A stretch of 64,000 nucleotides of DNA. Origin: Thermoanaerobaculia bacterium. GTDB lineage: Bacteria > Acidobacteriota > Thermoanaerobaculia > UBA5066 > Gp7-AA6. The translations under genes were made by a program, and so were the position numbers. Positions within the stretch are counted from its first letter, which is position 1. Every line of letters begins with the position of its first letter. Location of the stretch: the NCBI GenBank assembly GCA_035263845.1, contig DATFQY010000191.1, positions 37 to 64,036 on the forward strand. The letters are read 5' to 3'. The notes under the pieces are model-generated. The model was not told where the DNA came from, made no database searches, and worked only from the letters and a program-made list of their open reading frames with translations. Positions 15,257 through 51,167 of this stretch are shown one piece after another.

Positions 15257-15266
15257 GGTCCTCCTC

Positions 15267-16481: not shown

Positions 16482-16484
16482 CGC

Positions 16485-17234
16485 CTAGCGCTTCTCCACC
16501 GACTTGCCCCCCGGCGCTCCGGGGCGGGCCGTCTCCTGCGCGAGCAGGATCAGGATCAGGGCGTTCTTGGAGCCTTCCTCCTTGGACGCCCCGACGACCA
16601 GCGTCTGGTTGAGCGTCACCGGCACGGAGGCGCGGTACAGGAGCGTGGGCTGCACGCGGCCCTGCTCGTCCTTCTTCAGCCTGGACAGAGCGAACGGCGA
16701 GAGCAGCAGCTCGTCGCCCGCCCCGGCCGGGCCGATGGTGAAGGTCAGGATGTACTCGTCGCCGAGCCGGTAGGAGACCGGCCGTCCCTCGACTCCCTGC
16801 ATCGTGGCGGAATCCAGGAGCGTGTAGTCGTTGAACTGGAACATGGATTTCAGCTTCGCCCCCAGACCGCCGATCTCGCGCGCCATGGACCCGGCGGGCG
16901 CGTCGGCGCGGGCACGCACGAGCTTGACCGCGAAGGTGAAGCCGCGCGGGGGAACGTCGAACTCGGAGAGGACCTTCGCGATCGTCTTCAAGTTCTCCTC
17001 CCGATCCGTGACGGTCATCGCATTCAGGCGCTGCGCCAGCGTGATCGAGGCCGAGTCGGAGAGGTGGGGACGGATCAGCAGGGCCGCCTCTTCGACCCGC
17101 TTGTACTTCAGCACGAAGACCCGGACCGCCGTCTCCGAGGCCGCCCCCGCCGGGGACGCGTTCTCCGGTCCCGGCAGCGCGATCGCGTCGAGCGACATGG
17201 CCACGAGGGCCGCGAAGAGAATTCCTTTTCTCAC
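16485..17234 (-). CDS. Periplasmic protein with a Secretin_N-like domain
   Basis: Signal peptide, then VRVFVLKYKRVEEAALLIRP...TVTDREENLKTIAKVLSEFD, which resembles the secretin N domain. No secretin C-domain. Confidence 0.5.
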   Translation of the reverse strand: MRKGILFAALVAMSLDAIALPGPENASPAGAASETAVRVFVLKYKRVEEAALLIRPHLSDSASITLAQRLNAMTVTDREENLKTIAKVLSEFDVPPRGFTFAVKLVRARADAPAGSMAREIGGLGAKLKSMFQFNDYTLLDSATMQGVEGRPVSYRLGDEYILTFTIGPAGAGDELLLSPFALSRLKKDEQGRVQPTLLYRASVPVTLNQTLVVGASKEEGSKNALILILLAQETARPGAPGGKSVEKR

Positions 17235-22897: not shown

Positions 22898-23479
22898 CTA
22901 TCGCAGCTCGGAATTCCAGTAAGCGACGTCGAGGAAGTTCCGCCAGGCCGGGTGGACCTTGTTCGAGCCGAAGTGGCCGACCGGATGCCAGCGGGGCTTC
23001 TTGGGCTGGCTGATCAGCCTCATCGAGGCCTCGTGCGGGCTGCGGTTGCCCTTCTTGACGTTGCAGGCCAGGCACGCGCACACGACGTTCTCCCAGTTGG
23101 ACCGCCCGCCCCGCGACAACGGGATGACGTGGTCGAGCGACAGGTCCGAGGAAGAGAACTTGTGCCCGCAGTACTGGCAGCGGTTCCCGTCGCGCAGGTA
23201 AATGTTGTGCCGCGAGAACTTCACGTCCTGCCTCGGCAGCCGGTCGAACTCCTTCAGCACGATGACGCGCGGAACGCGGATCGCCATCGAGGGCGTCAGG
23301 ACGACCTCGTCCTGCGGCTGCACGGGGATGTCGCACCAGTTCTCGAACTCGTAGGTCGAGTAGTCCGGCAGGACGGCGCGGACGTGCCCCTTGTAGAAGA
23401 GCGAGAACGCCTTCCGGACCGAAGTGACCTGAATCGCCTGAAATACGCGATTCAAAACGAGCACATGAGTATCCAGCAT
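22898..23479 (-). CDS. HNH endonuclease (McrA-like)
   Basis: CQYCGHKF...LDHVIPLSRGG...NWENVVCACLACNVKKGN. Confidence 0.7.
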   Translation of the reverse strand: MLDTHVLVLNRVFQAIQVTSVRKAFSLFYKGHVRAVLPDYSTYEFENWCDIPVQPQDEVVLTPSMAIRVPRVIVLKEFDRLPRQDVKFSRHNIYLRDGNRCQYCGHKFSSSDLSLDHVIPLSRGGRSNWENVVCACLACNVKKGNRSPHEASMRLISQPKKPRWHPVGHFGSNKVHPAWRNFLDVAYWNSELR

Positions 23480-23532
23480 GCGACTTTCTCGAAGGCGGCA
23501 ATTATAGTCAAAGGAGTGAGGAAGGTCAGGTC

Positions 23533-24555
23533 TTGACGCCACGCGTGCCGCGGAAACGGCTGCTTTCCGTCATCGACGGCTTCGCCGGGAGGCGCCTCGT
23601 CGTGGCCGGAGACTACGTCCTCGACCGGTTCCTCTACGGGCATCCCAAGCGCGTCAGCCGCGAGGCACCGGTCCTGATCCTCCGGTTCTGGAAGGAGGAG
23701 CACCTGCCCGGCGGCGCCGGAAACACCGCGGCCAACGTCCGGTCGCTCGGGGGCGTCCCGATCCCCGTCGGGGCGGTGGGAAAGGACGACGCCGGCGCGA
23801 GACTGCGGGAAGCGCTGGCCGGACGCGGGATCGACACCGACGGACTGCTGGCGGCACCGGACTACGGGACCCCGACGAAGACGAGGATCCTCGCGGGAGC
23901 TCCGCACGGGATCAAGCAGCAGGTCGTCCGCTACGACCGCGAGTCGAATCTCCCGGAAGACTCCGCGCTCGCCGCGAGGATCGCCGACGCGCTCGAAAGG
24001 AGCGCCGCCGGAGCCGACGCGGCGGTCCTCTCGGACTACGGTTACGGCGCGGTCCCGAAGGACGCGAACGCAATCCTGCGCGGGAGCCTTCCCTCCGGCG
24101 CGCCGATCCTGGTGGATTCGCGCCACGGTCTGACCGGCTTCGCGGGCGCGGACGCGCTGACGCCCAACGAGGAAGAGCTCGAGGAGTGGATCGGCAAGCC
24201 GCTCGGCGACTCCGCCGAGGAGCTTGAGAGCGCCGCGCGCTCGCTCCAGAAGGCCGTGGCCGCCCGGATCGTCCTCGTCACCCGCGGCTCGCGGGGGATG
24301 GCGCTCTTCCAGGATGGCGCCTCGCCAGTCTCGATCCCGGTCCACGGGACCGACCAGGTCGCCGACGTCACCGGGGCCGGGGACACGGTGCTCGCGACCT
24401 TCTCGCTCGCGCTCGCCTCCGGAGCCTCGCCGCTCGAGGCCGCGCTGCTGGCCAACTTCGCCGGCGGCGTGGTCGTCATGAAGATGGGGACGGCGACGAT
24501 CACCCCGGAGGAGCTCCGAGACGCGGTCGGTTCGGATCGAACGATCCTCGAATGA
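23533..24555 (+). CDS. hldA: D-glycero-beta-D-manno-heptose-7-phosphate kinase (HldE domain I / HldA)
   Basis: PfkB carbohydrate kinase (TGAGDT). Sits next to the adenylyltransferase half. Confidence 0.8.
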   Translation: MTPRVPRKRLLSVIDGFAGRRLVVAGDYVLDRFLYGHPKRVSREAPVLILRFWKEEHLPGGAGNTAANVRSLGGVPIPVGAVGKDDAGARLREALAGRGIDTDGLLAAPDYGTPTKTRILAGAPHGIKQQVVRYDRESNLPEDSALAARIADALERSAAGADAAVLSDYGYGAVPKDANAILRGSLPSGAPILVDSRHGLTGFAGADALTPNEEELEEWIGKPLGDSAEELESAARSLQKAVAARIVLVTRGSRGMALFQDGASPVSIPVHGTDQVADVTGAGDTVLATFSLALASGASPLEAALLANFAGGVVVMKMGTATITPEELRDAVGSDRTILE

Positions 24556-25034
24556 CGGGAGGCCTCTCGAAGATCCTCTCCCGCGAGGAGCTTCTCGAAG
24601 CGGCGAAGCGCCAGGGCGCCGCGGGCCGCTCGATCGTGTTCGCCAACGGCGCGTTCGACCTGCTCCACGTGGGCCACGTCCGCTACCTCGAGGCGGCGCG
24701 CCGCGAGGGGGACTGGCTCGTGGTCGGCGTCAACTCCGACCGGTCGGTCCGCGCGTCCAAGGGGGACGGCCGCCCGATCCTGCCGGAGTCCGAGCGGTCG
24801 GAGGTCGTCGCTGCCCTCCGGTGCGTGGACGCCGTCGTGATCTTCGACGAGGACTCTCCGGCGGAGCTGATCGCGGCGCTGCGCCCGGCGGTCCACGCCA
24901 AGGGCACCGACTACACTTCCGAGTCGGTTCCCGAGCGCTCGGTCGTCGCCTCTTACGGGGGCCGAACTGTGATCGTCGGGGACCCGAAGGACCACGCCAC
25001 GACCGACCTGATCGAACGGATCCGTAAGCCGTAA
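24552..25034 (+). CDS. hldC: D-glycero-beta-D-manno-heptose-1-phosphate adenylyltransferase (HldE domain II / HldC)
   Basis: Cytidylyltransferase HxGH motif (GAFDLLHVGHVRYL). ATGA overlap with the kinase gene. Confidence 0.8.
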   Translation: MTGGLSKILSREELLEAAKRQGAAGRSIVFANGAFDLLHVGHVRYLEAARREGDWLVVGVNSDRSVRASKGDGRPILPESERSEVVAALRCVDAVVIFDEDSPAELIAALRPAVHAKGTDYTSESVPERSVVASYGGRTVIVGDPKDHATTDLIERIRKP

Positions 25035-25108
25035 GCCGTCAGCCGTCAGCCGAAGCCATGCTTGATACTGGGACTCCGGCTCACCGCTCACGGCTCACGG
25101 CTCACGCG
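25018..25108 (+). repeat. Palindromic heptamer-array element, copy 2
   Basis: ccgtaagccgtaagccgtcagccgtcagccg / 25-nt loop / cggctcaccgctcacggctcacggctcacg. It contains the hldC stop and ends 2 nt before the waaC-like ATG. Confidence 0.6.
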
Positions 25109-25110
25109 TC

Positions 25111-26100
25111 ATGAGGATCCTGATCGTCCGCCTCTCGTCGCTGGGCGACATCATCCACACGCTCCCGCTGGCGCTGAACGCGCACATGGGCGGCGCCCGG
25201 GTCGCGTGGCTGACGGAGCGCGGATACCGGGGGCTGCTCGAAGGAAACCCGTGCATCGAGCGGCTCTTCCTCGCCGACACGAGGCGATGGCGCGCCAACC
25301 TCGCTTCGATCTCACACTGGAAGGCGGTGGTGGAGCTGCGCCGCGGGCTGAAAGAGTTCGACCCCGAGGTGACTCTCGATCCGCAGGGGCTCTGGAAGTC
25401 GGCCCTCCTGGCGAAGCTGGCGGGCTGTCCCGTGGTTGGGTTCTCCGCGGGGTCCCGCCGGGAGCCCTCCTCCGCCGTGCTCGCCGCGACGGGCGTGGAC
25501 ATCGCGCCGGAGGCGGAGCACGTCGTGGACCAGAACCTTTCCCTGCTCGCCCCGCTGGGAATCCCGGTCGCTCGCCGAGCCCCGGATGCCCGCTACCTTC
25601 TGGAGCCGGAAGACTCCCGGGCCGCCGCCTTCCTCCGGACACTGCCGACTCCCTTCGCGCTCTACCATCCCGGCTCGGCCCGCTCGACGAAATCCTGGGG
25701 GGAGCGCAACTACGCCCAGCTCGCCGAGCAGCTGCACAAGAAGCTCGGGCTCTACCCGGCGATCTCCTGGGGGCCGGGAGACGAGCGTCGCGCCGAGCGG
25801 CTCGGGAGACTCCTCCCCTACTCCGCGAAGATCCCCGCGGTCCATTTTCGCGGCCTCGCCCAGGTCCTCTCGCGCGCGAGCCTGTTCGTCGCGGGCGACA
25901 CCGGGCCGGTCCACCTCGCAGACGCGATCGGCGTCCCGGCGCTGGCGCTCTTCGGCCCCGACGCGTACAAGCGCAACCTGCCCGAGCGCAACCGGCCGTA
26001 CCGGGGCGCCGCCTTGAGTTACGATCAGGCGGCGTCGGTCGAAACCGTCGCGCGCAAGGCCGTGGAGCTCGTCGAGAACGCCGGAACGATCGAGGGGTGA
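25111..26100 (+). CDS. ADP-heptose:LPS heptosyltransferase I (GT9, WaaC-like)
   Basis: MRILIVRLSSLGDIIHTLP...GDTGPVHLADAIGVP. Confidence 0.7.
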   Translation: MRILIVRLSSLGDIIHTLPLALNAHMGGARVAWLTERGYRGLLEGNPCIERLFLADTRRWRANLASISHWKAVVELRRGLKEFDPEVTLDPQGLWKSALLAKLAGCPVVGFSAGSRREPSSAVLAATGVDIAPEAEHVVDQNLSLLAPLGIPVARRAPDARYLLEPEDSRAAAFLRTLPTPFALYHPGSARSTKSWGERNYAQLAEQLHKKLGLYPAISWGPGDERRAERLGRLLPYSAKIPAVHFRGLAQVLSRASLFVAGDTGPVHLADAIGVPALALFGPDAYKRNLPERNRPYRGAALSYDQAASVETVARKAVELVENAGTIEG

Positions 26101-26915: not shown

Positions 26916-28760
<1,845 letters not shown>

Positions 28761-28762
28761 GC

Positions 28763-28836
28763 GGTGGGTGTTAGGTCCTAGGTGGTAGGAAAGCCCCGCT
28801 TCCGGGCCTACCACCTACCACTTGCCACCTAACACC
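28763..28836 (+). repeat. Heptamer-array palindrome (GGTGGGT GTTAGGT CCTAGGT GGTAGGA / loop / CCTACCA CCTACCA CTTGCCA CCTAACA)
   Basis: Read directly. Lies between the pilB stop and the pilT start. Confidence 0.5.
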
Positions 28837-28907
28837 TTGCGGGTAAACCGGTAGGCTTTCCTTTCGGCCGGCGAGCGGCTAAACTAACGCACTTCCCTAA
28901 GGGACCG

Positions 28908-30029
28908 ATGCCCAGCGATACGACACTCCACCAGCTCCTCAAGCAGATGGTCGAAATGGGGGCCTCCGACCTCCACCTGACGACCAACTCGCCACCGATG
29001 GTCCGGCTGGACGGGCGGCTCATTCCGCTTCCGTACCCGCCTCTGACGGTGTCGGAAACCAAACACCTCGCGTACTCGGTTTTGACAGACAGCCAGAAGC
29101 ACCGCTTCGAGGAGACGCTGGAGCTGGACTTCTCCTTCGGCGTCAAGGGGCTCGCCCGGTTCCGCGCCAACAATTTCAACCAGCGCGGAGCGGTCGCCGG
29201 CGTCTACAGGCAGATCCCCTATCAGATCCTCGGCTTCCGCGAGCTGGGGCTGCCGCCGATCGTCGAGACCCTCTGCGACAAGCCGCGAGGCCTGATCCTC
29301 GTCACGGGCCCCACCGGCTCGGGCAAGACGACGTCGCTCGCCGCGATGCTCGACAAGGTCAACGTCGAGAAGCAGCTCCACATCGTCACCATCGAGGACC
29401 CCATCGAGTTCCTCCACGGGCACAAGAAGTGCCTCGTCAACCAGCGCGAGCTCCACGCCGACACGCACTCCTTCCCCAACGCGCTGCGGGCCTGCCTGCG
29501 CGAGGACCCCGACGTCGTCCTCATCGGCGAGATGCGCGACCTGGAAACCATCGAGTCGGCCCTGCGCATCGCCGAGACCGGCCACCTCACGCTCGCGACC
29601 CTGCACACCAACTCCGCGATCTCCTCGATCAACCGGATCATCGACGTGTTCCCCGCGCACCAGCAGACGCAGATCCGCACACAGCTCTCCTTCGTGCTCG
29701 AGGGGATCCTCTGCCAGTCCCTCCTCGAGAGGGCGAGCGGCAAGGGCCGCATCATGGCGATGGAAGTCCTGGTCCCCAACGCCGCCATCCGCAACCTGAT
29801 CCGCGAGGACAAGGTCCACCAGATCTACTCGATGATGCAGACGGGCCAGTCGAAGTTCGGGATGCAGACTTTCAACCAGTCGCTGGCGACGCTCTACCAC
29901 CGCAAGCTGATCACGCTGGAGACGGCGCTGTCTCGCTCCTCCAATCCCGACGAGCTGCAGGAGCTGATCGGGCGCGGGGCAGGGCTGAACGTCGCCGCGC
30001 CGCCGGCCGTGGCCGGCAGGCGCGTTTAA
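28908..30029 (+). CDS. pilT: Twitching motility ATPase PilT
   Basis: 373 aa, GPTGSGKTTSLAAM, PilT-specific C-terminus. Confidence 0.88.
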   Translation: MPSDTTLHQLLKQMVEMGASDLHLTTNSPPMVRLDGRLIPLPYPPLTVSETKHLAYSVLTDSQKHRFEETLELDFSFGVKGLARFRANNFNQRGAVAGVYRQIPYQILGFRELGLPPIVETLCDKPRGLILVTGPTGSGKTTSLAAMLDKVNVEKQLHIVTIEDPIEFLHGHKKCLVNQRELHADTHSFPNALRACLREDPDVVLIGEMRDLETIESALRIAETGHLTLATLHTNSAISSINRIIDVFPAHQQTQIRTQLSFVLEGILCQSLLERASGKGRIMAMEVLVPNAAIRNLIREDKVHQIYSMMQTGQSKFGMQTFNQSLATLYHRKLITLETALSRSSNPDELQELIGRGAGLNVAAPPAVAGRRV

Positions 30030-30041
30030 GGAAGTCCCGCC

Positions 30042-31244
30042 GTGCCGAGCTACGCCTGGAAAGGGCGCAACCGCGCTGGCCTGGTCAAGGAAGGCGTCCT
30101 CGCCGCCGACTCCAAGGAAGTCGCGCTGGCGTCGCTGCGGCGCCAGAACATCGTCGTCACCGGCATCCGGGAGCGCGGCAAGGAGATCTCCCTCACCAAG
30201 GTCGGCCGCAAGGTCCCGCCCAAGACGCTCGCGGTTTTCACCCGGCAGTTCTCCGTCATGATCGACGCGGGCCTGCCGCTGGTCCAGTGCATCGAGATCC
30301 TCGCGAACCAGCAGGAGCACAAGAATTTCCAGAAGATCCTGCTCCAGGTCCGGCAGGACGTCGAGGCCGGCTCGACGCTGGCCGACGCGATGCGCCGGCA
30401 CCCGAAGGCCTTCGACGCGCTTTACGTCAACATGGTCGCGGCGGGCGAGGCGGGCGGTATCCTCGACACGATCCTCCAGCGCCTCTCCGTCTACATCGAG
30501 AAGGCCGTCAAGCTGAAGTCCCAGGTCCGGTCGGCGCTGATCTACCCGGTCGCCGTCATCGTCATCGCGGCCATCGTCGTCGCGGTCATCCTGCTCAAGG
30601 TCATCCCGACCTTCGCCGCCCTGTTCACGAGCCTCGGGGCGGAGCTGCCGCTGCCGACGCGCGTGGTCATCGCGATGTCGAACTTCCTGGCGCGGTACTT
30701 CATCTTCTTCGTCATCGGCGTCGCGGCCGGCGTCTACGGCATCCGGCGGTACTACGCGACCTACCGTGGGCGCCGCGTCATCGACGGGCTGCTCCTGAAG
30801 CTCCCGGTCCTCGGGATGATCCTGCGCAAGGTCGCCGTCGCCCGCTTCTGCCGCACGCTCGCGACGCTGACCTCCTCGGGCGTGCCGATCCTGGAGAGCC
30901 TCGACATCACGGCCCGCACCGCCGGCAACGCCATCGTCGAGGACGCCATCTACGAGACCCGTAAGAGCGTCGAGGGAGGCAAGACGATCGTCGAGCCCCT
31001 CCGCGCCACCAACATCTTCCCGAACATGGTCGTCCAGATGATCGGGGTCGGCGAGCAGACCGGCGCGCTCGACGCCATGCTCAACAAGATCGCGGACTTC
31101 TACGAGGACGAGGTGGACGCCGCGGTGTCCGGCCTGGTCAAGCTGCTCGAGCCGATCCTGATCTTCATCCTCGGCATCGTCATCGGCGGAATCGTCATCG
31201 CCATGTACCTGCCGATGTTCACCCTGATCAACAAGATCGGCTGA
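30042..31244 (+). CDS. pilC: Type IV pilus platform protein PilC
   Basis: 400 aa GspF/PilC family. Confidence 0.85.
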   Translation: MPSYAWKGRNRAGLVKEGVLAADSKEVALASLRRQNIVVTGIRERGKEISLTKVGRKVPPKTLAVFTRQFSVMIDAGLPLVQCIEILANQQEHKNFQKILLQVRQDVEAGSTLADAMRRHPKAFDALYVNMVAAGEAGGILDTILQRLSVYIEKAVKLKSQVRSALIYPVAVIVIAAIVVAVILLKVIPTFAALFTSLGAELPLPTRVVIAMSNFLARYFIFFVIGVAAGVYGIRRYYATYRGRRVIDGLLLKLPVLGMILRKVAVARFCRTLATLTSSGVPILESLDITARTAGNAIVEDAIYETRKSVEGGKTIVEPLRATNIFPNMVVQMIGVGEQTGALDAMLNKIADFYEDEVDAAVSGLVKLLEPILIFILGIVIGGIVIAMYLPMFTLINKIG

Positions 31245-31250
31245 GGGTCT

Positions 31251-32942
31251 TTGCGCCCCGAAACCCGCACGCCGGCATCTCCCCGGTCGTTGAACCTGCT
31301 CACGGCGATCCGGCTCGCCGTGCTGCTCGTCATCCTCGTCTCGGCCTTCCTGCTCCACACGAGCTCGGCCGGCGACCTCCCGCTGACGTTCCTGTACTTC
31401 CTCCTCGGATTGAACGCCGCCGCCCTGACGCTGGGGATCTTCCAGTGGACGATGGGCCGGTCGCTGCCTCACACCGTCTGCGCGTACCTCCAGTCGCTCG
31501 GGGACATCGTCCTGGTGACGCTCCTGGTTTACGCCTCCGGCGGACCGTACTCCGTCTTCAACTTTCTCTACCTGGTGGTCATCGGGGTCTCCGCGGTCCT
31601 CCTCGTGCGGCCGGGTTCGCTCGTCATCGCGACGGCGGCCGCGCTCTCCTACGGCGCGGTCGTGGAGCTGCTCGCCAAGGGGGTGCTCCCGGCACCGCCC
31701 GTCACACCCGTATCGGACTGGACGGGAAGCCAGGTCCGCTACAACTTCGCGATCTCGGTCGTGGGGTTCTACGGCGTGGCGTTCATGGCGGGGTACCTCT
31801 CCGAGAAGCTCCGCGCGACGAGGACCGAGCTCGGCCGCCGGCAGAAAGCCCTCCAGAAGCTCCAGAACCTCCACGGCAACGTCATCGCGACGATGGCCTC
31901 GGGCCTGCTGACGACGGACTCGCATCAGCGCATCACCTTCGTCAATCCGGCGGGGGGCGCGCTGCTGGGCGTGGACCCGGCGCACGCGGCGGGGATGTTC
32001 CTCCAGGACTTCGATTTCGAAATGCCCGAGAACTGGGCGACGATCTGGGACGGCGACAGCACCTGGGACAGTTTTCGCGGAGAGATCGAGATCAACCGCA
32101 AGACGTCCCGGCGCGTCATCGGCTACTCGCTGCGCGGGCTGGTGGACGCCGACCGAGAGATGGGGCTGCTCATCCTCTTCCAGGACCTGACCGAGATCAA
32201 GAAGCTCCAGCGGCGCGCCCGCTTCAACGAGCAGCTCGCCGCGGTCGGGGAGCTCGCCGCCGGCATCGCCCACGAGATCCGCAACCCGCTGGCGTCCATC
32301 TCGGGCTCGGTCCAGGTGCTCTCCAACGAGTTGACCGTCGGCTCCGCCGAGAGGCGGCTGATGGAGATCATCGTGTCCGAGTCCAAGCGCCTCTCCAAGA
32401 TCCTCGAGGACTTCCTGCGCTTCGTGCGCCCGCAGGAGCGGCGGGTCGCGGACTTCGACGTGGCCAACTGCGTCTCCGAGGTGATGGACCTCTTCCGGCT
32501 CTCCGACGAAGTCTCCGATTCCCACCGCATCGAGGCAGTCGTCGAGCCGCCGCACTCGACGCTATCGGGCGACCGGGACCAGGTCCGGCAGATCATCTAC
32601 AACATCGCCAAGAACGCGGTTCGCGCGATGGCCGCGGGCGGCACGCTCACGGTCCTGGGACGAGAGCAGGAAGGCTGGTATAGCATCCGCTTCATCGATA
32701 CAGGCCGAGGCATGAGCGAGGAAGAGCTGAGCCGTCTCTTCACCCCGTTCTCCACGGCGTTCGACGGCGGGACGGGGCTCGGGATGGCCATCGTCCGGAA
32801 GATCGTGGAGGACCATGGAGGCACGATCGAGGCGGACTCGACCCCAGGGGAGGGGACCACGGTGACGGTGCTTCTGCCGCGCAACCCGGTCCCGCGCGAG
32901 GCGACACCGGCCAGGACATCCTTCCAGGAGGCGGCCCTGTGA
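31251..32942 (+). CDS. pilS: Sensor histidine kinase (PilS-like)
   Basis: Six TM segments, a PAS domain, HisKA (GIAHEIRNPL) and HATPase_c. TTG start. Confidence 0.75.
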   Translation: MRPETRTPASPRSLNLLTAIRLAVLLVILVSAFLLHTSSAGDLPLTFLYFLLGLNAAALTLGIFQWTMGRSLPHTVCAYLQSLGDIVLVTLLVYASGGPYSVFNFLYLVVIGVSAVLLVRPGSLVIATAAALSYGAVVELLAKGVLPAPPVTPVSDWTGSQVRYNFAISVVGFYGVAFMAGYLSEKLRATRTELGRRQKALQKLQNLHGNVIATMASGLLTTDSHQRITFVNPAGGALLGVDPAHAAGMFLQDFDFEMPENWATIWDGDSTWDSFRGEIEINRKTSRRVIGYSLRGLVDADREMGLLILFQDLTEIKKLQRRARFNEQLAAVGELAAGIAHEIRNPLASISGSVQVLSNELTVGSAERRLMEIIVSESKRLSKILEDFLRFVRPQERRVADFDVANCVSEVMDLFRLSDEVSDSHRIEAVVEPPHSTLSGDRDQVRQIIYNIAKNAVRAMAAGGTLTVLGREQEGWYSIRFIDTGRGMSEEELSRLFTPFSTAFDGGTGLGMAIVRKIVEDHGGTIEADSTPGEGTTVTVLLPRNPVPREATPARTSFQEAAL

Positions 32943-34381
32943 GCGGCGCGCGGCTCCTGATCGTGGACGACGAGGCGTCGATCCGCGACATGCTGGCCTT
33001 CTTTTTCCACAAGCGAGGCTTCGAGGTCCTGACCGCCTCGAACTACGCCGAGGGCTCGGCCTCCGCGCTGCGCTCCTCGCCCGACCTGATCCTCTGCGAC
33101 ATCAAGATGCCCGACGGCAACGGGCTGGACCTGCTCCGCAAGACCAAAGCCGAGAACCCCAAGACGCCGGTCATCATGATCACCGCGCACACATCCGCCA
33201 AGGACGCGATCGACGCGATGAAGGCCGGCGCCATCGACTACATCTCCAAGCCGTTCGACGTCGAGGAGCTGGGGCTGCTGGTGGACCGCGCGCTCGGCGA
33301 GAAGCAGCTCCAGGACGAGAACATCTACCTCAAGCAGGAGCTCGCGGCCAAGTACACCTTCGCCAACATCATCGGCAAGGGATCGCGGATGCAGGAGATC
33401 TTCCGCACGATCGAGAGGATCGGCCGGGTCTCCTCGACGGTCCTGCTGACGGGCGAGAGCGGGACGGGCAAGGAGCTCATCGCGCGGGCGATCCACTACA
33501 CGTCGATCCGCAAGGAGAAGAAGTTCGTCTCGATCAACTGCGGCGCTCTGCCGGAGACGCTGCTCGAGTCCGAGCTCTTCGGCCACGAGCGGGGAGCCTT
33601 CACCGGCGCGGTCAAGGAGAAGCGAGGCCTCTTCTCGGAGGCGGACGGCGGGACGCTGTTCCTGGACGAGATCTCCGAGACCACCCCGACGATGCAGGTC
33701 AAGCTCCTCCGGGCGATCCAGGAGAAGCTGATCCGGAAGGTCGGCGGCAACGAGGAAACCAGCGTGGACGTCCGCATCATCGCGGCGACCAACAAGGACT
33801 TGAACGACCTCGTCTCCTCGCAGCGCTTCCGCGAGGACCTCTTCTACCGGATCAACGTCATCCCGATCGCGCTGCCGCCGCTGCGCTCGCGCGTGGAGGA
33901 CATCGCCCCCCTGACGCAGCACTTCATCGGGATGATCTGCAAGGAGCAGAGGATCCCGGAGAAGAAAATCTCGACGGAGGCGATGCGGCTCCTCGAGGCG
34001 TACCCGTGGCCGGGCAACGTCCGGGAGCTCGAGAACACGCTGGAGCGGACGGTCGCCCTGGAGGGAGGACCGGTCATCACGGCGTCGAGCCTCCCCGAGG
34101 CGATCGCGCTCGGCGTGCGGACGCGCGTGCCCGACTTCGAGAGCCTTCCCGCCGAGGGGATCAACCTGGAGGCGTACCTCGAGGCGGTCGGCAAGCGGCT
34201 CATGCGCGAGGCGCTCGACCGCTGCGACGGGGTCCAGACGAAGGCCGCGGAGCTGCTGCGGATGTCCTTCCGCTCCTTCCGCTACTACGCCAAGAAGTAC
34301 AACCTGGTCCGGAAGGAAGACCTCTACGAGGACGAGTCCGCGACGCAGCCCGCCGAGCCCGCGGAGATGGAAGGAAACTGA
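32939..34381 (+). CDS. pilR: Sigma-54-dependent response regulator (PilR-like, NtrC family)
   Basis: REC domain, AAA+ sigma-54 activator (GESGTGKE, GAFTGA) and a C-terminal HTH. Confidence 0.85.
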   Translation: MSGARLLIVDDEASIRDMLAFFFHKRGFEVLTASNYAEGSASALRSSPDLILCDIKMPDGNGLDLLRKTKAENPKTPVIMITAHTSAKDAIDAMKAGAIDYISKPFDVEELGLLVDRALGEKQLQDENIYLKQELAAKYTFANIIGKGSRMQEIFRTIERIGRVSSTVLLTGESGTGKELIARAIHYTSIRKEKKFVSINCGALPETLLESELFGHERGAFTGAVKEKRGLFSEADGGTLFLDEISETTPTMQVKLLRAIQEKLIRKVGGNEETSVDVRIIAATNKDLNDLVSSQRFREDLFYRINVIPIALPPLRSRVEDIAPLTQHFIGMICKEQRIPEKKISTEAMRLLEAYPWPGNVRELENTLERTVALEGGPVITASSLPEAIALGVRTRVPDFESLPAEGINLEAYLEAVGKRLMREALDRCDGVQTKAAELLRMSFRSFRYYAKKYNLVRKEDLYEDESATQPAEPAEMEGN

Positions 34382-34937: not shown

Positions 34938-36695
34938 CTACGGCTCGAAGAGGAAGAGGCCGTCGCCGGTTGTCCCGACGTAGAGGCGTCCCCCGGGGGC
35001 GGGGGCGGCGGTGGCGAGAGCGAGGCCCGCGCGGGGGCTCGAGACGGCGAGGCGGCGGCCGCCTTCTTCCCAGATGAGCTTGCCGCCGATCTCCTGCAGG
35101 GAGCTGTAGGAGCCGGTGGCCGTCTTCTCTTCCATGAAGATGCCTCCCTTGAGCAACCCGGCGCGGTGGCTCGACCACGCCTGGCCGTTCCAGCGAGAGA
35201 TGCCTTCGCTCGAGCGGACCTCCAGGAGCGGCCCGCCCGCGGAATCCGAGAGCAGCTCCGCCGCGGAGGGCGCGGCGGGTCCGCCGATCGTCGCGAACTC
35301 TTCTCCGGCTCCCCCGATTCGGAAGCTTCCCGCGCTGGTCACCAGCACAGGCTGGAGGAACGGCGACCCGTAGAGAGCGATCGGGCTTCCCGCTGGCGGG
35401 CTCGCCGGCGCCGCCCAGTGCTCCCCCAGGTCGCGCGAGAACCGCAGTCCCGAGGACGAGGCGAGGCCCAGCACCGTCTTGCCGGCCGCGTCGCGGAAGG
35501 CAATGAGCGACGCCGACGGCGGAAGGGTGTCGCGCGAGACCCTGCGGACCCGCAGGCCCCTCGCCTCCCAGACGCCGCTCTCGTCGCCTCCGTACGCCCG
35601 GAAGAAGAAGAGCCGCGAGGGATCGTTGGGATCCGGCACGAGGTCCGCGACCCGCCCCTCGGTCAGCCCGACCGATCCGTTGACGAGCGTCGCTCCCCCG
35701 TCGTCCGAGTAGAAGACGCCTTCGCCTTCGGTCCCGACGAAGAGGCGTCCCGTCGACCGGTCCACCTCGAGCGAGGTGACGACGAGGCTCTCCCTCGAGA
35801 TGCGCGACCACGTCTCTCCCCCGTCGGTCGAGCGGTGCAGCCCTCCGACGGTCGCCGCGTAGACGACCCCCGGCCGCGTCGGGTCGCGCCGCACCGAGTG
35901 CGACCGCCGGTTCGTGAAGCCGTTCTTGAAGCGGATCCACTTGTCGCCGCCGTCCTTCGTCCGGTAGACCCAGCCGCAGGTGGAGACCCAGATGTCGCGG
36001 GGGTCGGATGCCGCGAAGTCCCACGAGTACACCGTCGCGTCGAGCACCATGCCCTCCGCGATCCGCGCCCACGTCTCGCCGCCGTCGCGGGTCCGGAAGG
36101 CCTGCCGCCAGGTCCCCGCATAGAGGACGCGCGGGTCGGCGGGATCGAAGGCCATCGATTCGACCTGCGCGAGCCCCGGGGTCTCCGCTCCCGTCCGCGA
36201 CCACGTCCGGCCGCCGTCGCGAGAGAGACGGACTCCGTCGTCGCCGCCCACGGCGAGCAGGGCCGGGTCGCCCGGCACGACGGCCAGTGCGCGCGTCGCG
36301 ACGGTCTCTTTCCAGGTCGCGAGGATCGTCCAGTCGGCGCCGCGGTTGTCGCTGCGGACGACGAGCCCGCCGGCGTACTGCCCCGCGAGCGACGCCCACA
36401 GCCTGCCGGCGACGCGCGAATCCGCGATCAGCGACGTGACGACGTAGCCCGGAAAGGCCGGGCCCGGGCGAAGCGGCGACCACGAGGCCCCGCCGTCGGT
36501 GGACCCGTAGAAGTTGCCCCGCGAAGTCCCGCAGTAGAGAGAGCCCGGCCGGAACGGATCCATTTCGAAAACGCGGACCTCGGCGCCCCAGATCGGGAGC
36601 CGCCACCACGTGGCCGCGCCGGCGGCGGACGCGACGGCGCCGGCGAGGCACGCCGCCGCGAAGACGCGAAGGAAGCGAGTGGAAAGAAGGCTCAC
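34938..36695 (-). CDS. BNR/Asp-box repeat protein (sialidase-like / Ycf48-like beta-propeller)
   Basis: At least six S-x-D-x-G-x-T-W repeats; signal peptide; GTG start overlaps the xdhC stop. Confidence 0.6.
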   Translation of the reverse strand: MSLLSTRFLRVFAAACLAGAVASAAGAATWWRLPIWGAEVRVFEMDPFRPGSLYCGTSRGNFYGSTDGGASWSPLRPGPAFPGYVVTSLIADSRVAGRLWASLAGQYAGGLVVRSDNRGADWTILATWKETVATRALAVVPGDPALLAVGGDDGVRLSRDGGRTWSRTGAETPGLAQVESMAFDPADPRVLYAGTWRQAFRTRDGGETWARIAEGMVLDATVYSWDFAASDPRDIWVSTCGWVYRTKDGGDKWIRFKNGFTNRRSHSVRRDPTRPGVVYAATVGGLHRSTDGGETWSRISRESLVVTSLEVDRSTGRLFVGTEGEGVFYSDDGGATLVNGSVGLTEGRVADLVPDPNDPSRLFFFRAYGGDESGVWEARGLRVRRVSRDTLPPSASLIAFRDAAGKTVLGLASSSGLRFSRDLGEHWAAPASPPAGSPIALYGSPFLQPVLVTSAGSFRIGGAGEEFATIGGPAAPSAAELLSDSAGGPLLEVRSSEGISRWNGQAWSSHRAGLLKGGIFMEEKTATGSYSSLQEIGGKLIWEEGGRRLAVSSPRAGLALATAAPAPGGRLYVGTTGDGLFLFEP

Positions 36696-37558
36696 GGCTC
36701 GAGGACGCTCTCCCGGACGCGGGAGCGGACAGCGGCGGCGCGGCGGACCGCCGTGACTTCGGCCAGGATCGAGACCGCGATCTCCTCGGGAGTCACGGCG
36801 CCGATCTCCAGGCCGATCGGGGCGCAGACTCGCCGGATCTCGTCTTCCCGGATTCCCTCCTCGCGGAGCCGATCGAAGACGCCGCGAATCTTCCGGTTCG
36901 AGCCGATCAGCCCGACGTACTTCGCCTCGGGGGCGCCGGGCGAGACCCACGGCCGCAGCGCCGCGAGGTCGGTCTCCCAGCAGCGCGTCACGACCGCGAC
37001 GTAGAGGTCTCGCCCCTTCGGCATCGCCTCGGAGGGGAGCGCGTAGTCCCTGCCGGCGCGGATCGTCCGGACGCCGGCGGGGAACCTCTCCGGCTTCGAA
37101 TACTCCTCGCGGTCGTCCGCGACGGCGACGTCGAACCCCAGGGACGGCCCGATCCGCGCGAGGGCGAGGCCGACGTGACCTCCCCCGTAGACGAGCAGCG
37201 CCGGCTTCGCATCGAGACGCTCGACGAGCACCCGGGCCGATCCGCCGCAGATCATGTTGGTGGGCTCGCGCTCGTCTCCGCCGATCTCCCTCTCGAAGAA
37301 GTCGTACCACTTCAGCAGGCGCCTGGGCCCGTCCGCCCGGAAGAGCGCGGCCGAGTCGGCGACGACGAGCGCCTCGAAGGGCCCGCCGCCGATCGTCCCC
37401 GAGAAGGTCCCGTCCTCGAAGACGAGGAAGCGCCGCCCGTCCTTCGACGGCCCGGACCCCTTCGTCTCCACGACGGTCGCCAGGGCGACCCTGCCGCGGT
37501 TCTGAAGTTGTTCGGCCAGGTTACGAAAGAAGGCCTCATCCGACATGGAACGGTTCAT
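36692..37558 (-). CDS. XdhC/CoxI family molybdoenzyme maturation protein
   Basis: XdhC_CoxI N-domain and Rossmann-like C-domain. Confidence 0.7.
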   Translation of the reverse strand: MNRSMSDEAFFRNLAEQLQNRGRVALATVVETKGSGPSKDGRRFLVFEDGTFSGTIGGGPFEALVVADSAALFRADGPRRLLKWYDFFEREIGGDEREPTNMICGGSARVLVERLDAKPALLVYGGGHVGLALARIGPSLGFDVAVADDREEYSKPERFPAGVRTIRAGRDYALPSEAMPKGRDLYVAVVTRCWETDLAALRPWVSPGAPEAKYVGLIGSNRKIRGVFDRLREEGIREDEIRRVCAPIGLEIGAVTPEEIAVSILAEVTAVRRAAAVRSRVRESVLEP

Positions 37559-39801: not shown

Positions 39802-40998
39802 GTGATCCGTGTTTCCGAGGCCCTGGAGGTCATCGCCGCAAATGCTCCGGCCCTGGAGGCCGAGAGCGTCGCGCTGGGGGACGCCCTCGGGAGGGTCCTC
39901 GCCTCTGACCTTGCCGCGGACGTGGACTGGCCCCCATTCGACACGTCGGCGATGGACGGATACGCCATCCGGCTGGCCGATGTGCCCGCCCCGGGGGCGC
40001 GCCTGCCCGAGCGCGGACGGGCGGTGATGGCCGGCGACGCTCCTCCCGGGCCGCTCCCGGCGGGAGAGACGGTGCGCGTGATGACGGGCGCGCCGATTCC
40101 GCCCGGAACCGAGGCGATCATCCCAGTCGAGCAGGCCCGGGCGAACGGCGGCGCCGTGATTTTCGAGCACCCGCCGGCGGCCGGGGCACACCTGCGCCGG
40201 CGCGGGGAGAGCATCCGGGCAGGCTCGGTCCTGGTCGCCGCCGGAAGACGGCTCACGCCGGGCGACGTGGCGCTCGCGGCCCTGGGCGGCGCCGACCCTG
40301 TCCGCGTGACCAGGCGCCCCCGGATCGCGATCGCCGCGACGGGCAACGAGCTCGTCGCCCCCGGCGGAAGGCCCCGGCCCGGGCAGATCCGGGATTCCAA
40401 CGGCCCGATGCTCGTCGCGCTTTGCCGGGCTCGGGGCTGGGACGCCCGCCGGCTTCCCAACGCCTCGGACGACGAGGCGGGCCTCGCGGCGCTCTTCTCC
40501 ACCGGCACGGAAGAGGCTGACGTGCTGATCACGTCCGGCGGAGTCTCGGCGGGAGACCTCGACCTCGTGCCGGCGGCCGCGGAGCGGCGGGGCTTCGAGA
40601 TCCTCTTCCACGGCGTGTCGGTCCGCCCGGGAAAGCCCGTGGCGTTCGGAAAGCGCGGCCGGACGCTCTGGTTCGGCCTGCCGGGCAATCCCGTCTCGAG
40701 CTCGGTCTGCTTCCACCTCTTCGCGCGGGACGCCCTCGACCGCCTGGAAGGCTGCTCGGCGCCGGGAGCGCCCCGCGCGCGTGTGCCCTTGGCGGGCGAA
40801 CTCCCCCGCAACGGCCCCCGCGAGACGTACCGCGACGCGAGGATCTCCGCGAACGGCGGGGTCACGTCCGTCGAGCCGCTCGCGACCGCGGGTAGCCACG
40901 ACATCCGGGCCCACGCGGCGGCCGACGCCCTGATCCGGATCCCCGCCGGCGCCGAGGCTCAGGTCTCCGGCGCGGTCGTCGAGTGCGTGCTGCTGTGA
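39802..40998 (+). CDS. moeA: Molybdopterin molybdotransferase MoeA
   Basis: 398 aa MoeA domains (SAMDGYA...GGVSAGD). Confidence 0.85.
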   Translation: MIRVSEALEVIAANAPALEAESVALGDALGRVLASDLAADVDWPPFDTSAMDGYAIRLADVPAPGARLPERGRAVMAGDAPPGPLPAGETVRVMTGAPIPPGTEAIIPVEQARANGGAVIFEHPPAAGAHLRRRGESIRAGSVLVAAGRRLTPGDVALAALGGADPVRVTRRPRIAIAATGNELVAPGGRPRPGQIRDSNGPMLVALCRARGWDARRLPNASDDEAGLAALFSTGTEEADVLITSGGVSAGDLDLVPAAAERRGFEILFHGVSVRPGKPVAFGKRGRTLWFGLPGNPVSSSVCFHLFARDALDRLEGCSAPGAPRARVPLAGELPRNGPRETYRDARISANGGVTSVEPLATAGSHDIRAHAAADALIRIPAGAEAQVSGAVVECVLL

Positions 40999-47792: not shown

Positions 47793-49103
47793 TTACGCCG
47801 GGCCCACCCCCACCACCTCGAGCTCCACCCGCCGGTTCTTCGCGCGGCCTTCGTCGGTGCTGTTGCTGGCGACTGGCTTGCTCAACCCCTCGCCGCGGAC
47901 CTGGAGCTTCTTGGGATCCACCCCGAGGCTGACGAGGTAATCGCGAACCGACTGCGCCCGACGCAGGGAGAGCTTCTTGTTGTAGGCCGCCGTACCCTTG
48001 TTGTCGGTGTGGCCCGTGATGATCACCTTGTCCGCGCGGGAGAGCTTCTCCCTCGCTTCCTCGCGGTAGGACTTGATGGCCTCCTTCCCTTCCGGTTTCA
48101 GAACGGCCTTGTCGAAATCGAAGAGCACCGCGTCGAAGAGGATGGTTTTCTCCCTCGCAGGCGCGGGCGCCGGCGCCCTCGGAGCAGGAGCGGGGGCGGG
48201 GGCCGGAGGAGGCGGCGCGGAGGCGACCTGGGGCGGCGGGAACTCATAGCTGACGGTGTACTGGCGCGTGGTCCTGGTGCCCATCTTCTGGAAGGCCGCC
48301 ACCATGTCGCCGCCCTTCCCGGCCTTGCGGGCCATGCCCTTGGTTCCTTCGGCAAACTTCGCGAAGAAGGGATCCATGTTCGGACCCGGCATCGAATCGA
48401 CCAGGAACACGCAGAGGTTGTCGATGCCCTGTGCGGCCTGGGCGACGACGTCGCCCTTGAAGGCGCTGTTCAGGTCCTCGCCATCCGAGAAGACCCAGAT
48501 GCACCGCGACTCGCTGGCCGGCGCAGCCTTGAGGAGAACCAGGCCGGCGTACATCTCCTCGTAGAGGTAGGTGTTGTCGGTGATGTTCTTCTTCAGGTAG
48601 GCCTTGTTCGCGTAATCCTGAAGCTCGGCGGGCTTGTTCGACTTGAAGGTGTCGACATGGACGTTGCGATCGCCCATCTTCACGACCTTCCCGTCGCGGA
48701 GGATGACGATCTGCGCGTCGTCGGCGGGGCGGATCGTCTGGATCACGGCGCTCGCCTCGGCAAGCTGCGGCTGGATCCTCCGGCGCTCCTCGATCGAATA
48801 AGAGTTGTCCAGCACGAGGACAACGTGCCGCGGAACGTCCACGGTCTTGTCCACCGACTCGACCGAGACGATCCTTCCCGTCTCGCCTCCTCGCGACACC
48901 GTGAAATCCCGGGCGGTCAACGAGGGGACGGGCTCTTTCCTGGAATCCAGGACGGTCACGAGGGCCTTGCCCTCCCCCATGGTCCGGTCAATCGTCACCG
49001 TCGCGTCGGACCGGGTCGTCCCGATCCGGACGTCCTGCGCAACCAGGACTGCTCCCCAAGCCATCAGGGCGACCAGGAAAACGGATGTGCGCTTGATCAA
49101 CAT
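47793..49103 (-). CDS. vWA-domain / OmpA-domain outer-membrane-associated protein
   Basis: Signal peptide, vWA domain, Pro/Ala linker, C-terminal OmpA_C (TDNKGTAAYNKKLSLRRAQSV). Confidence 0.7.
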   Translation of the reverse strand: MLIKRTSVFLVALMAWGAVLVAQDVRIGTTRSDATVTIDRTMGEGKALVTVLDSRKEPVPSLTARDFTVSRGGETGRIVSVESVDKTVDVPRHVVLVLDNSYSIEERRRIQPQLAEASAVIQTIRPADDAQIVILRDGKVVKMGDRNVHVDTFKSNKPAELQDYANKAYLKKNITDNTYLYEEMYAGLVLLKAAPASESRCIWVFSDGEDLNSAFKGDVVAQAAQGIDNLCVFLVDSMPGPNMDPFFAKFAEGTKGMARKAGKGGDMVAAFQKMGTRTTRQYTVSYEFPPPQVASAPPPPAPAPAPAPRAPAPAPAREKTILFDAVLFDFDKAVLKPEGKEAIKSYREEAREKLSRADKVIITGHTDNKGTAAYNKKLSLRRAQSVRDYLVSLGVDPKKLQVRGEGLSKPVASNSTDEGRAKNRRVELEVVGVGPA

Positions 49104-49294
49104 GACCTTCCTTCCCCCTCTCCGGGCTTCCGTTCTGGCCCGCCCGCAAACACTTCCGAGGATGCGGGCGGTCGACCCCGATGCCCGTTCTCGACGGCCG
49201 TACGGATGCTGCAATCCTGCTGAAACTCTCCCACTTCCGGCCATTCCCTTTGATTCAACCGCACCAACACCAAAGTTCATTGATAATCCGCGCC

Positions 49295-49392
49295 GGAAGC
49301 GCATGGGGCCTGGTGGCTCTCGCGGACTTCAAATCCGTCGGCGTCGCGGTTATGCCGGGACGGGTGGGTTCGATTCCCACACGCTTCCGCCA
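49295..49392 (+). tRNA. selC: tRNA-Sec (anticodon UCA)
   Basis: Folded by hand: 7-bp acceptor stem GGAAGCG/CGCTTCC, 6-bp D-stem with 4-nt loop, anticodon loop CTTCAAA, long variable arm, T-arm GTGGG-TTCGATT-CCCAC, G discriminator and CCA. Confidence 0.75.
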
Positions 49393-49395
49393 CCG

Positions 49396-49425
49396 ACCCG
49401 CCCCTCGCAGCGGAGGGTTTCTTGC
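49396..49425 (+). terminator. Hairpin CCCTCGCAGCGGAGGG followed by TTTCTT, downstream of selC
   Basis: Read directly. Confidence 0.35.
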
Positions 49426-49426: not shown

Positions 49427-50836
49427 TCAGTGGAGGTGGGCGCTGGGGTTGCCCTGCGGAAGGGCGGCGAAGGCGGGGTTGTCGGGCTTCCCGCGGTTTA
49501 GGATGATCGCGTAGAGGAAGGGGGCGAAGCTCGTTCCCTTGCGGCCGTTGATCGCGACGATCGGGGTGCCGTCGGAGTCGAAGCGGCTGGCGTTCGCGAT
49601 GTCCTGCTCCAGGGTCTGGCGGACCTCCCGGGAATCCAGGCACGAGTCGATCTGGGCGCGCGACAGGAACCGCGAGGCGATATCGATCGCCTGCGAGCGT
49701 GTCAGGCCCTCCTGCTTCTCGAAGAGCGCCGTCGCGAGGTCCGGCTCCTTTCCCGACGGCTCGGCGCAGATGCGAAGCTTCGCCGCAACGCAGCGCACGT
49801 CGTCACGATTGCCGCCCGGCTTCAGGAGCGGGTTGCACCTTCCGTCCAGCGGGAACTGCCTCGAGTCCACGCTGTAGCTGCCGGGCGGCACCTCCTGGCG
49901 CAAGGAACGCAGGGTCTCGTTCAGGCTCGCGCAGTGCTCGCAAAGGATGTCGGTGAAATCCGTGATTCGGACCGGCGACATCTCGGGGCCGACGAGCGAG
50001 CGCGGCGGTGGAAGCTCCTGCGGGGTCGAGGCCCGGTAGATTGCGAGGGAATCCGCCAGCGTCTGCTTCAGGGACGGCTCCAGAGAGGCGATCATGTCGG
50101 CGATCGCCTTGTTGCGCTGCGGGCTGCCGGAAGAGACCTCCGGGGGCTCCGCGGCGACCTCGGAGCTCGGGGAGGACTTCGCCGCGGCGGCCACGGCCCG
50201 GCGCCCCGGCTCGCCGGTGGAGCGGGGCGTGTTGACGCCCGGGTAGAGGAGGACGAGGAACGCGGCGACGGCGCATCCTCCCGCGAGCGCGGCGGCGCGC
50301 GGCCAGTCAGGCAGGCCGAACGGGCGCCAGCGGCGCAGCGCGAACACGGCGTAGGCGGCGACGAGCGCGTCCATCGCGAGGCAGCCCAGGCACGCCGCGC
50401 CGGCGGCGACGCTCGCGCCCAGCATCACGACGATCCCGGCAGCCCCGGCGATCGCCGTGACACGAGCGGCGCCGAAGACCCTTCCGATGGATCTGCCGCG
50501 GGCCGCGCGCGAGAGCCCAGCGAGGGCGAGGGAGAACGCCCCGGCGCTCCAGACGAGGCCCCACGCCGCGACCGGCAGGCCGGTCAGGCCCTGGACTTCC
50601 GAGGCAAACTTCCCGTTCCATACCGCCGAGCAGTCGAGGCTGCCCTCGGTCGCGCAGAAAGTGTTTCCCCCGGAACGCAGGATCACAAGCTCCATCCAGA
50701 GAAAGAGCGACCAGAGCCCGGAAACCGCCGAGAGAGCGATGAGCGTTGCCCATGGCGGAGCGTCGGTCGAGCGTGGCGGACGCGGCGACGGATCAGCCGG
50801 TCGGGTTTCCTTTTTCTTTTTCTCCAACATCGTCAT
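49427..50836 (-). CDS. VKOR-domain / DsbA-like thioredoxin fusion protein
   Basis: N-terminal VKOR membrane domain with CxxC; C-terminal DsbA-like domain with a CEHC motif. Start limited by the downstream tRNA gene. Confidence 0.65.
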   Translation of the reverse strand: MTMLEKKKKETRPADPSPRPPRSTDAPPWATLIALSAVSGLWSLFLWMELVILRSGGNTFCATEGSLDCSAVWNGKFASEVQGLTGLPVAAWGLVWSAGAFSLALAGLSRAARGRSIGRVFGAARVTAIAGAAGIVVMLGASVAAGAACLGCLAMDALVAAYAVFALRRWRPFGLPDWPRAAALAGGCAVAAFLVLLYPGVNTPRSTGEPGRRAVAAAAKSSPSSEVAAEPPEVSSGSPQRNKAIADMIASLEPSLKQTLADSLAIYRASTPQELPPPRSLVGPEMSPVRITDFTDILCEHCASLNETLRSLRQEVPPGSYSVDSRQFPLDGRCNPLLKPGGNRDDVRCVAAKLRICAEPSGKEPDLATALFEKQEGLTRSQAIDIASRFLSRAQIDSCLDSREVRQTLEQDIANASRFDSDGTPIVAINGRKGTSFAPFLYAIILNRGKPDNPAFAALPQGNPSAHLH

Positions 50837-50904
50837 TGTGTCATCAGGCAGGGAACTCTCTTGATCCCTCTGGCCTGAGACCGTGCTATCCTCCGCGGTC
50901 CCGT

Positions 50905-50981
50905 GGGGCTGTAGCTCAGTTTGGGAGAGCGCCTGAATGGCATTCAGGAGGTCGACGGTTCGATCCCGTTCAGGGCTTTCG
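50905..50981 (+). tRNA. tRNA-Ala-like copy with a disrupted acceptor stem (probable pseudo-tRNA)
   Basis: Its first 66 nt are identical to tRNA-Ala(GGC), but the 3' acceptor strand CAGGGCT cannot pair with GGGGCTG and no CCA is present. Confidence 0.4.
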
Positions 50982-51090
50982 GCGCGGGCGCTCGCTCCGC
51001 GAGCGGCGCCGAGAGAGTTAGCTACCAGGGGCACTTAGCCGGCGAGCGCCTGCTGACTCAGGAGAGCCGTGCTATCCTGCGCGGTCCCGT

Positions 51091-51167
51091 GGGGCTGTAG
51101 CTCAGTTTGGGAGAGCGCCTGAATGGCATTCAGGAGGTCGACGGTTCGATCCCGTTCAGCTCCACCA
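51091..51167 (+). tRNA. tRNA-Ala (anticodon GGC)
   Basis: Canonical cloverleaf, G3:U70 identity pair, CCA encoded. Confidence 0.9.

Follow-up and report, generated by a model that had tools for sequence, protein, structure and literature searches.

A selenocysteine tRNA gene (selC) in an uncultured Thermoanaerobaculia bacterium of the Acidobacteriota

Introduction

The closest described counterpart of the gene reported here is selC of Escherichia coli, a gene of 95 nt whose product folds into a clean 8/5 arrangement of acceptor and T stems. In the E. coli tRNA, the pairs C7-G66, G49.U65, and C50-G64 mediate recognition by SelB and rejection by EF-Tu, and the strongest serylation determinant is G73 (PMC9976931). 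Bacterial tRNA-Sec is not uniform, and bulges at position 43a as well as deviations in the acceptor/T domain, including variants with 12 bp in this domain, have been documented (Santesmasses et al. 2017, PMC5330540). A second group of comparable molecules consists of the allo-tRNAs and selC* tRNAs, which have 8/4 or 9/3 acceptor and T stems and varied anticodons; the Acidobacteria are a known source of allo-tRNAs, and these surface in searches for tRNA-Sec (Mukai et al. 2017, PMC5389517). At the level of genomes, selB and selC have always coincided with selA, selD, and selenoproteins in those that were surveyed (Romero et al. 2005, PMC1273633). By 2006, three selenoprotein families had been attributed to the Acidobacteria (PMC1794560), and our literature search found no paper connecting the class Thermoanaerobaculia with selenocysteine (Sec).

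Here we describe a tRNA gene in a 64-kb stretch of DNA (the window, ~68% G+C) from an uncultured member of the Thermoanaerobaculia. Outside the variable arm it aligns without gaps to E. coli selC. The two genes share the anticodon UCA, G1, G73, and an encoded CCA, as well as acceptor strands of 8 nt, a 2-nt linker, D and anticodon stems of 6 bp each, a D-loop of 4 nt, a long variable arm, and a T-stem of 5 bp. They differ in length (98 nt in the window), in the eighth acceptor pair (C.A here, C-G in E. coli), in the first two T-stem pairs (G-C and U-A here, G.U and C-G in E. coli), and in a single bulged U in the anticodon stem of the window gene. Like the 12-bp variants of tRNA-Sec (PMC5330540), it carries a bulged nucleotide at 43a, on the 3′ side of the anticodon stem, and its acceptor/T domain falls short of 13 Watson-Crick pairs, but it keeps 8-nt strands and the 13-layer 8/5 arrangement, with one layer mismatched rather than deleted or bulged. 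The acidobacterial allo-tRNAs and selC* tRNAs (PMC5389517) resemble it in their long variable arm, their extended acceptor and anticodon stems, and their occurrence in Acidobacteria, whereas its 8/5 stems, G73, and UCA anticodon set it apart from them. Our reading is that this is very probably a functional selC gene, encoding tRNA-Sec(UCA), in an organism whose selA, selB, and selD, together with at least one UGA-containing selenoprotein gene, are to be expected outside the window.

Results and discussion

Identity and fold of the tRNA-Sec gene

An earlier note made from the letters of the window alone had recognized selC at 49295-49392 and had proposed a tRNA finder as the check on its fold and isotype. 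ARAGORN, run on the whole window, reports three tRNA genes, among them a tRNA-Sec with anticodon UCA (tca) at exactly these coordinates on the + strand. A scan of the whole window with Rfam 15 gives an independent match to the tRNA-Sec family RF01852 at 49295-49388 (70.6 bits, E 2e-12; gathering score 47 bits) that covers the model over its full length, positions 1-91 of 91. The gene and its parts, all on the + strand, are as follows:

49295..49392, +, selC, the tRNA-Sec(UCA) gene (ARAGORN; RF01852; minimum-energy fold; 98/98 identity in the related loci L001-L003)
49295..49302, +, 5′ strand of the acceptor stem, partner 49381-49388; seven Watson-Crick pairs and a closing mismatch, C8.A87; 8/5 geometry
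49305..49320, +, D-arm with a 6-bp stem (GGGGCC/GGCUCU) and a 4-nt loop (UGGU) (fold; alignment)
49321..49340, +, anticodon arm with a 6-bp stem, bulged U44, and a 7-nt loop (CUUCAAA) (ARAGORN; fold)
49342..49362, +, long variable arm, 4+4 bp flanking a G.G mismatch, with a 3-nt loop (fold; alignment)
49364..49380, +, T-arm with a 5-bp stem (GUGGG/CCCAC) and loop UUCGAUU (fold; alignment)

Folding of the 98 nt without constraints yields this cloverleaf as the structure of minimum energy (−47.9 kcal/mol, z = −2.4) and also as the centroid. The hallmarks that had been folded by hand, namely the UCA anticodon, the 6-bp D-stem with its 4-nt loop, and the long variable arm, are all present in the unconstrained minimum-energy fold, and the length of 98 nt is likewise borne out, with the discriminator G73 (49389; G95 in gene numbering, directly before the CCA) and an encoded CCA at 49390-49392. 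The acceptor stem is the exception to this agreement: seven of its Watson-Crick pairs stand, but the eighth "pair" is the C8.A87 mismatch and not a Watson-Crick pair.

The anticodon lies at 49329-49331 (tRNA positions 35-37) and is invariant in 32 relatives, and the variable region spans 22 nt (tRNA positions 47-68). The acceptor strands of 8 nt each are followed by the 2-nt linker to the D-stem and are collinear with E. coli selC, so that the 13-layer 8/5 arrangement is present with only 12 of its 13 acceptor/T layers Watson-Crick, the eighth being C.A. The elements through which the tRNA would be handled by its enzymes can be read in the same fold: the SelA recognition element is the GGGGCC-UGGU-GGCUCU D-arm, and both SerRS identity elements, the long variable arm and G73, are found along with G1. 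Taken together, two independent programs and the comparative data described below establish, at the level of sequence, the identity of the gene as a bacterial tRNA-Sec.

Conservation of selC among relatives

An exact 42-nt stretch of the tRNA recurs in two species-representative genomes, both of them Thermoanaerobaculia MAGs (DATDNV01 and JAWOLE01), and a near-identical ENA metagenome contig (L001), which excludes the left 21 kb of the window, also carries selC. In all three of these loci (L001-L003) the gene is identical to that of the window at 98 of 98 positions, and in the two MAGs the flanks diverge directly outside it.

A search with a degenerate pattern returned 32 metagenome contigs, 31 of which yield a tRNA-Sec call, and pairs were counted on an alignment of 32 sequences, 18 of them distinct. 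Standard pairs occupy 92% of cells, compared with ~44-50% when the partner columns are displaced by 1-3 positions. Both partners have changed in seven of the pairs, and the observed covariation score was reached in 0 of 500 shuffles. Across the 31 metagenomic relatives compensatory changes occur in every arm. The acceptor stem offers C6-G replaced by U6-A; the D-stem is paired in 100% of cells, with one pair altered on both sides; the anticodon stem has compensatory changes at two pairs; and the T-stem, also paired in 100% of cells, has two compensatory pairs, as in the GUCGG/CCGAC stem of L007 and L029.

Promoter and 3′ hairpin

Two further elements flank the gene:

49282..49287, +, −10-like promoter box GATAAT, 7 nt upstream of the first mature tRNA base
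49402..49423, +, terminator-like hairpin CCCTCGCAGCGGAGGG with TTTCTT after it, in the gap that separates selC from the stop codon (49427-49429) of the convergent VKOR-DsbA gene

All close relatives carry a −10-like hexamer (GATAAT, CATAAT, TAGAAT, or TATAAT) that ends 7-8 nt before the tRNA. Across 24 related loci this box is the only conserved upstream element, the remaining upstream sequence being unrelated. A strict sigma-70 scan finds no full promoter. Judging by the window and L002-L034, the promoter of selC in the high-GC clade seems to be made up of the −10-like box (G/C/T-A-T/G-A-A-T) without a recognisable −35, whereas a lower-GC group (L009-L012, L023, L026, L028, L035) has a classic TTGACA box along with the −10.

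The hairpin and T-tract that had been noticed 3′ of the gene are indeed there, at 49402-49423, although a hairpin with a T-run is not in itself statistically distinctive, since the scan finds 2 sites of this kind in 3 kb, where chance would give 2.2. An analogous hairpin and T-run lie 3′ of selC in L002.

The identity of all 98 nt despite diverged flanks, the compensatory changes, and the conserved −10 box together indicate that selC is under purifying selection on both its sequence and its structure, that the −10-like box marks a dedicated promoter, and that the gene is in use rather than a relic.

Sec machinery and selenoprotein genes

If selC is in use, then the remainder of the Sec pathway should be encoded in the same genome. 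Pfam and NCBIfam searches of ~50 GC3-supported open reading frames, which include type II secretion, type IV pilus, and LPS-core genes as well as PurL, MoeA, XdhC, and glutamine synthetase, find no selA, selB, or selD in the 64-kb window. One candidate, PurL as a SelD, was set aside; it has only the expected distant similarity of the AIR-synthase fold (33 bits, cut-off 125). Searches by tblastn with E. coli SelA, SelB, and SelD have a match in one of 34 related loci, L030, and none in the window; among L002, L003, and 32 metagenome loci, those of the close clade have no sel genes beside selC.

Selenoprotein genes were sought as TGA codons with coding-like GC3 on both sides. In six frames of the window none is genuine, CxxU, UxxC, and similar motifs in the window correspond only to true stops and antisense shadows, and the same TGA scan on the related loci finds nothing. 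A TGA at 31242 was examined as a candidate and is a genuine stop between the same-frame neighbours pilC and pilS. The Pfam/NCBIfam, tblastn, and six-frame TGA scans thus agree with the initial impression that no sel gene and no TGA-interrupted gene is visible in the window.

The one exception among the related loci is instructive. L030, an AT-rich and more distant metagenome contig, carries selD 190 nt downstream of selC (190-1251, − strand; TIGR00476, 369.5 bits), with an in-frame TGA at the equivalent of the catalytic Cys17 (…SSKAG-U-ASKFGP…), which would make its product a Sec-containing SelD. This selC-selD pair illustrates the expected linkage and says nothing direct about the organism of the window.

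Could the gene then be an orphan, left behind after the loss of the Sec machinery and either decaying or turned to some other use such as weak opal suppression or regulation? The surroundings of selC in the window and in its close relatives, where neither sel genes nor selenoprotein genes are found, would fit such a history, as would the mismatched closing pair of the acceptor stem. A relic, however, would not be expected to maintain all of its stems by compensatory changes, to retain a conserved promoter box, or to stay identical across assemblies whose flanks have diverged. Distance from the sel genes is also common for selC, which is often unlinked to them, as in E. coli, and in the genomes surveyed selC has always been found together with selA, selB, selD, and selenoproteins (PMC1273633). 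We therefore regard an orphan selC as quite improbable.

Because selC is under apparent selection, and because its co-occurrence with the rest of the Sec trait is documented in the published survey, we expect selA, selB, and selD to lie elsewhere in the genome, outside the window, along with one or more selenoprotein genes that contain UGA. By the same reasoning, it is very likely that the organism uses selenoproteins.

Molybdenum-cofactor genes are a further feature of this region. Genes of the XdhC family and for MoeA (36692-37558 and 39802-40998) lie 9-12 kb from selC, and the MAG contig L002 has two XdhC-family genes and a MobA-like gene (1324-3998) just upstream of its selC. These genes suggest that the lineage makes molybdoenzymes, a class that includes FdhA, the commonest bacterial selenoprotein. 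No gene for an enzyme of this class was seen.

Genomic context

In the window, selC (+) is preceded by genes for a LolA-like protein, an FtsX permease, an ABC ATPase, and an OmpA-family protein, all on the − strand, and is followed by a VKOR-DsbA gene, also on the − strand. To the right of the latter come a damaged copy of tRNA-Ala(GGC), an intact tRNA-Ala(GGC), and a methyltransferase gene. The two immediate neighbours are:

47793-49103, −, OmpA-family protein gene (ENA gene call)
49427..50695, −, VKOR-DsbA fusion gene, 422 aa (Pfam VKOR, Thioredoxin_4, and DSBA; gene call in L001; translation)

The neighbour had been named from the sequence as a VKOR-DsbA thiol-disulfide oxidoreductase, and domain matches support this name, with Pfam VKOR (barely over its threshold, 27.6 versus 27.5) and a DsbA/thioredoxin fusion. 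Its protein has loop cysteines, a CLGC motif in the VKOR part, and a CEHC motif in the DsbA part. Since these sites hold cysteine and the gene has no in-frame TGA, the product is a cysteine enzyme, and we reject it as a selenoprotein or as a partner of selC. The NCBIfam match of this protein to a "(seleno)lipoprotein" thioredoxin family is likewise dismissed, at 23.5 bits against a cut-off of 190. No link between the VKOR-DsbA gene and selC is demonstrable, and the neighbours as a whole (OmpA-family, VKOR-DsbA, tRNA-Ala, and the ABC/FtsX/LolA-like cluster) are unrelated bystanders.

Some of this order recurs in relatives. The ABC/FtsX/LolA-like cluster adjoins selC in L003, L018, L027, and L029, and tRNA-Ala(GGC) is usually divergent from selC and directly beside it (L003, L004, L006, L017, L029). 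The window differs from these relatives in that OmpA and VKOR-DsbA flank selC and in that selC has the opposite orientation.

A tRNA gene whose flanks vary in this way invites the thought that a genomic island has inserted at it and brought the OmpA and VKOR-DsbA genes as cargo, and in enterobacteria islands classically target selC. In L003, moreover, selC stands directly between an ABC-transporter gene and tRNA-Ala, in the opposite orientation and with neither OmpA nor VKOR-DsbA, which shows that the local arrangement around selC has changed. The traces that an island would leave are nonetheless missing. Unlike selC of E. coli, the window gene adjoins no integrase or island, and its neighbours contain neither integrase nor recombinase domains; the 26-nt 3′ end of selC does not recur anywhere in the window, even with up to 3 mismatches allowed, and selC takes part in no repeat. 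There is no marked shift in GC (0.65 versus ~0.68), and a VKOR-DsbA gene lies near selC in the relative L008 as well. With neither an adjacent integrase nor a direct repeat of the 3′ end, we reject an island inserted at selC and put the chance that this reading is right at next to nothing.

The tRNA-Ala(GGC) genes nearby have a history of their own. The window contains a 93-nt direct repeat, 50881-50973 and 51067-51159, whose copies are 99% identical and 186 nt apart. Each comprises the first 69 nt of tRNA-Ala(GGC) and the ~24 nt that precede them, including a TATCCT box; the tRNA is called at 50905-50978 (the first copy) and at 51091-51167. The first copy has diverged in the 3′ acceptor strand, lacks G3:U70 and the CCA, and scores 47 bits with Rfam, against 62 for the intact copy, and so looks like a pseudo-tRNA; the duplication is present in L001 too. 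In L017, ARAGORN calls a 97-nt "tRNA-His (atg)" at 648-744 (−), adjoining tRNA-Ala and selC. This sequence begins with the 5′ start of tRNA-Ala and ends with its 3′ end (…UCAGCUCCACCA), does not fold into a cloverleaf, and has no Rfam match; it is probably another degenerate copy derived from tRNA-Ala. Its presence suggests that rearrangement of tRNA-Ala(GGC) beside selC is recurrent in the clade.

A second group of relatives has a different neighbour. In L009, L010, L012, L023, L025, L026, L028, and L035, selC is followed within ~20 nt by a Shine-Dalgarno sequence and tatA/tatE (TIGR01411, 69 bits; for example, 3004-3216 in L010), a conserved selC-tatA arrangement. About 3-5 kb past the right end of the window, L001 (1034-3318) has a gene with an FGE-sulfatase domain beside a Methyltransf_33 gene, which we take to be the EgtB/EgtD pairing typical of ergothioneine biosynthesis.

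Farther from selC, the window holds two separate secretion/pilus clusters. The one at 6981-17234 encodes pseudopilins, a secretin, a PilO-like protein, a GspE/PilB-type ATPase, a GspF-type platform protein, and a secretin-N protein. The other, at 26916-34381, encodes a PilB-type ATPase, probable PilT and PilC (by position), a PilS-like kinase, and a sigma-54 response regulator. Between them, at 18650-26100, lies an LPS-core/lipid A set (a Kdo transferase, a lipid A acyltransferase, a PfkB kinase and a cytidylyltransferase-like protein, and a heptosyltransferase) whose run is broken at 22898-23542 (−) by a gene for a stand-alone HNH endonuclease.

Proposed function and the acceptor/T domain

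Each step from gene to Sec insertion can be proposed here from the established bacterial pathway. The gene would be transcribed from its −10 box promoter as a nearly leaderless, monocistronic RNA. The tRNA would be charged with serine by SerRS, which would use G73 and the long variable arm (PMC9976931), and SelA, reading the 6-bp/4-nt D-arm, would turn the serine into Sec with selenophosphate supplied by SelD. SelB would then bring the Sec-tRNA to those UGA codons that precede a SECIS hairpin.

The last of these steps involves, in E. coli, the three pairs at the acceptor/T junction by which SelB recognizes the tRNA and EF-Tu is kept off. Their equivalents are C.A, G-C, and U-A in the window gene, and U-A, G.U, and C-G in the second group of relatives, of the L009/L010 type. 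At the eighth acceptor position, 3 of the distinct sequences of the alignment have U:A and 15 have C.A or G.A, with A87 invariant.

One could imagine that the clade has a sub-variant of tRNA-Sec, defined by a non-Watson-Crick eighth pair (C.A or G.A with the invariant A87) and plain Watson-Crick first T-stem pairs, in which the helical irregularity that attracts SelB and repels EF-Tu in E. coli has moved one layer higher and SelB and EF-Tu have co-adapted to it. We consider this unlikely, and the accompanying idea, that the non-Watson-Crick closing pair has taken over the role of the G.U wobble, is speculative and no less doubtful.

The possibility that the gene is a tRNA-Sec look-alike, belonging with the selC* tRNA-Cys genes or with the acidobacterial allo-tRNAs, whose acceptor and T stems add up to 12 bp (8/4 or 9/3), has in its favour the phylum of origin, from which such molecules have been recovered in searches for tRNA-Sec, and the mere 12 Watson-Crick pairs of the acceptor and T stems, but we hold it to be the least probable reading of all, given a T-stem of 5 pairs rather than 3 or 4, spacings that match E. 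coli selC exactly (8 nt from T-stem to G73, a linker of 2 nt before the D-stem), an eighth position that is U:A in some relatives, the 6-bp/4-nt D-arm and UCA anticodon, an RF01852 score well over its threshold, and a G73 where selC* tRNA-Cys carries U73. With its 5-bp T-stem, the gene falls outside the 8/4 and 9/3 arrangements by which the allo-tRNAs and selC* tRNAs were defined (PMC5389517), and its discriminator is G.

Conclusions

The annotation of selC in this window is correct and ordinary. It concerns a known kind of gene, one that standard tRNA finders annotate automatically and whose identical sequence is already present in public MAGs; it is no discovery, and it opens no new biological question. 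Its value is of a practical kind. Anyone annotating this genome should expect Sec encoded by UGA and should avoid splitting homologues of fdhA, selD, and thiol peroxidase at TGA codons. With this finding, the class Thermoanaerobaculia joins the Acidobacteriota lineages in which the signature gene of Sec decoding is present.
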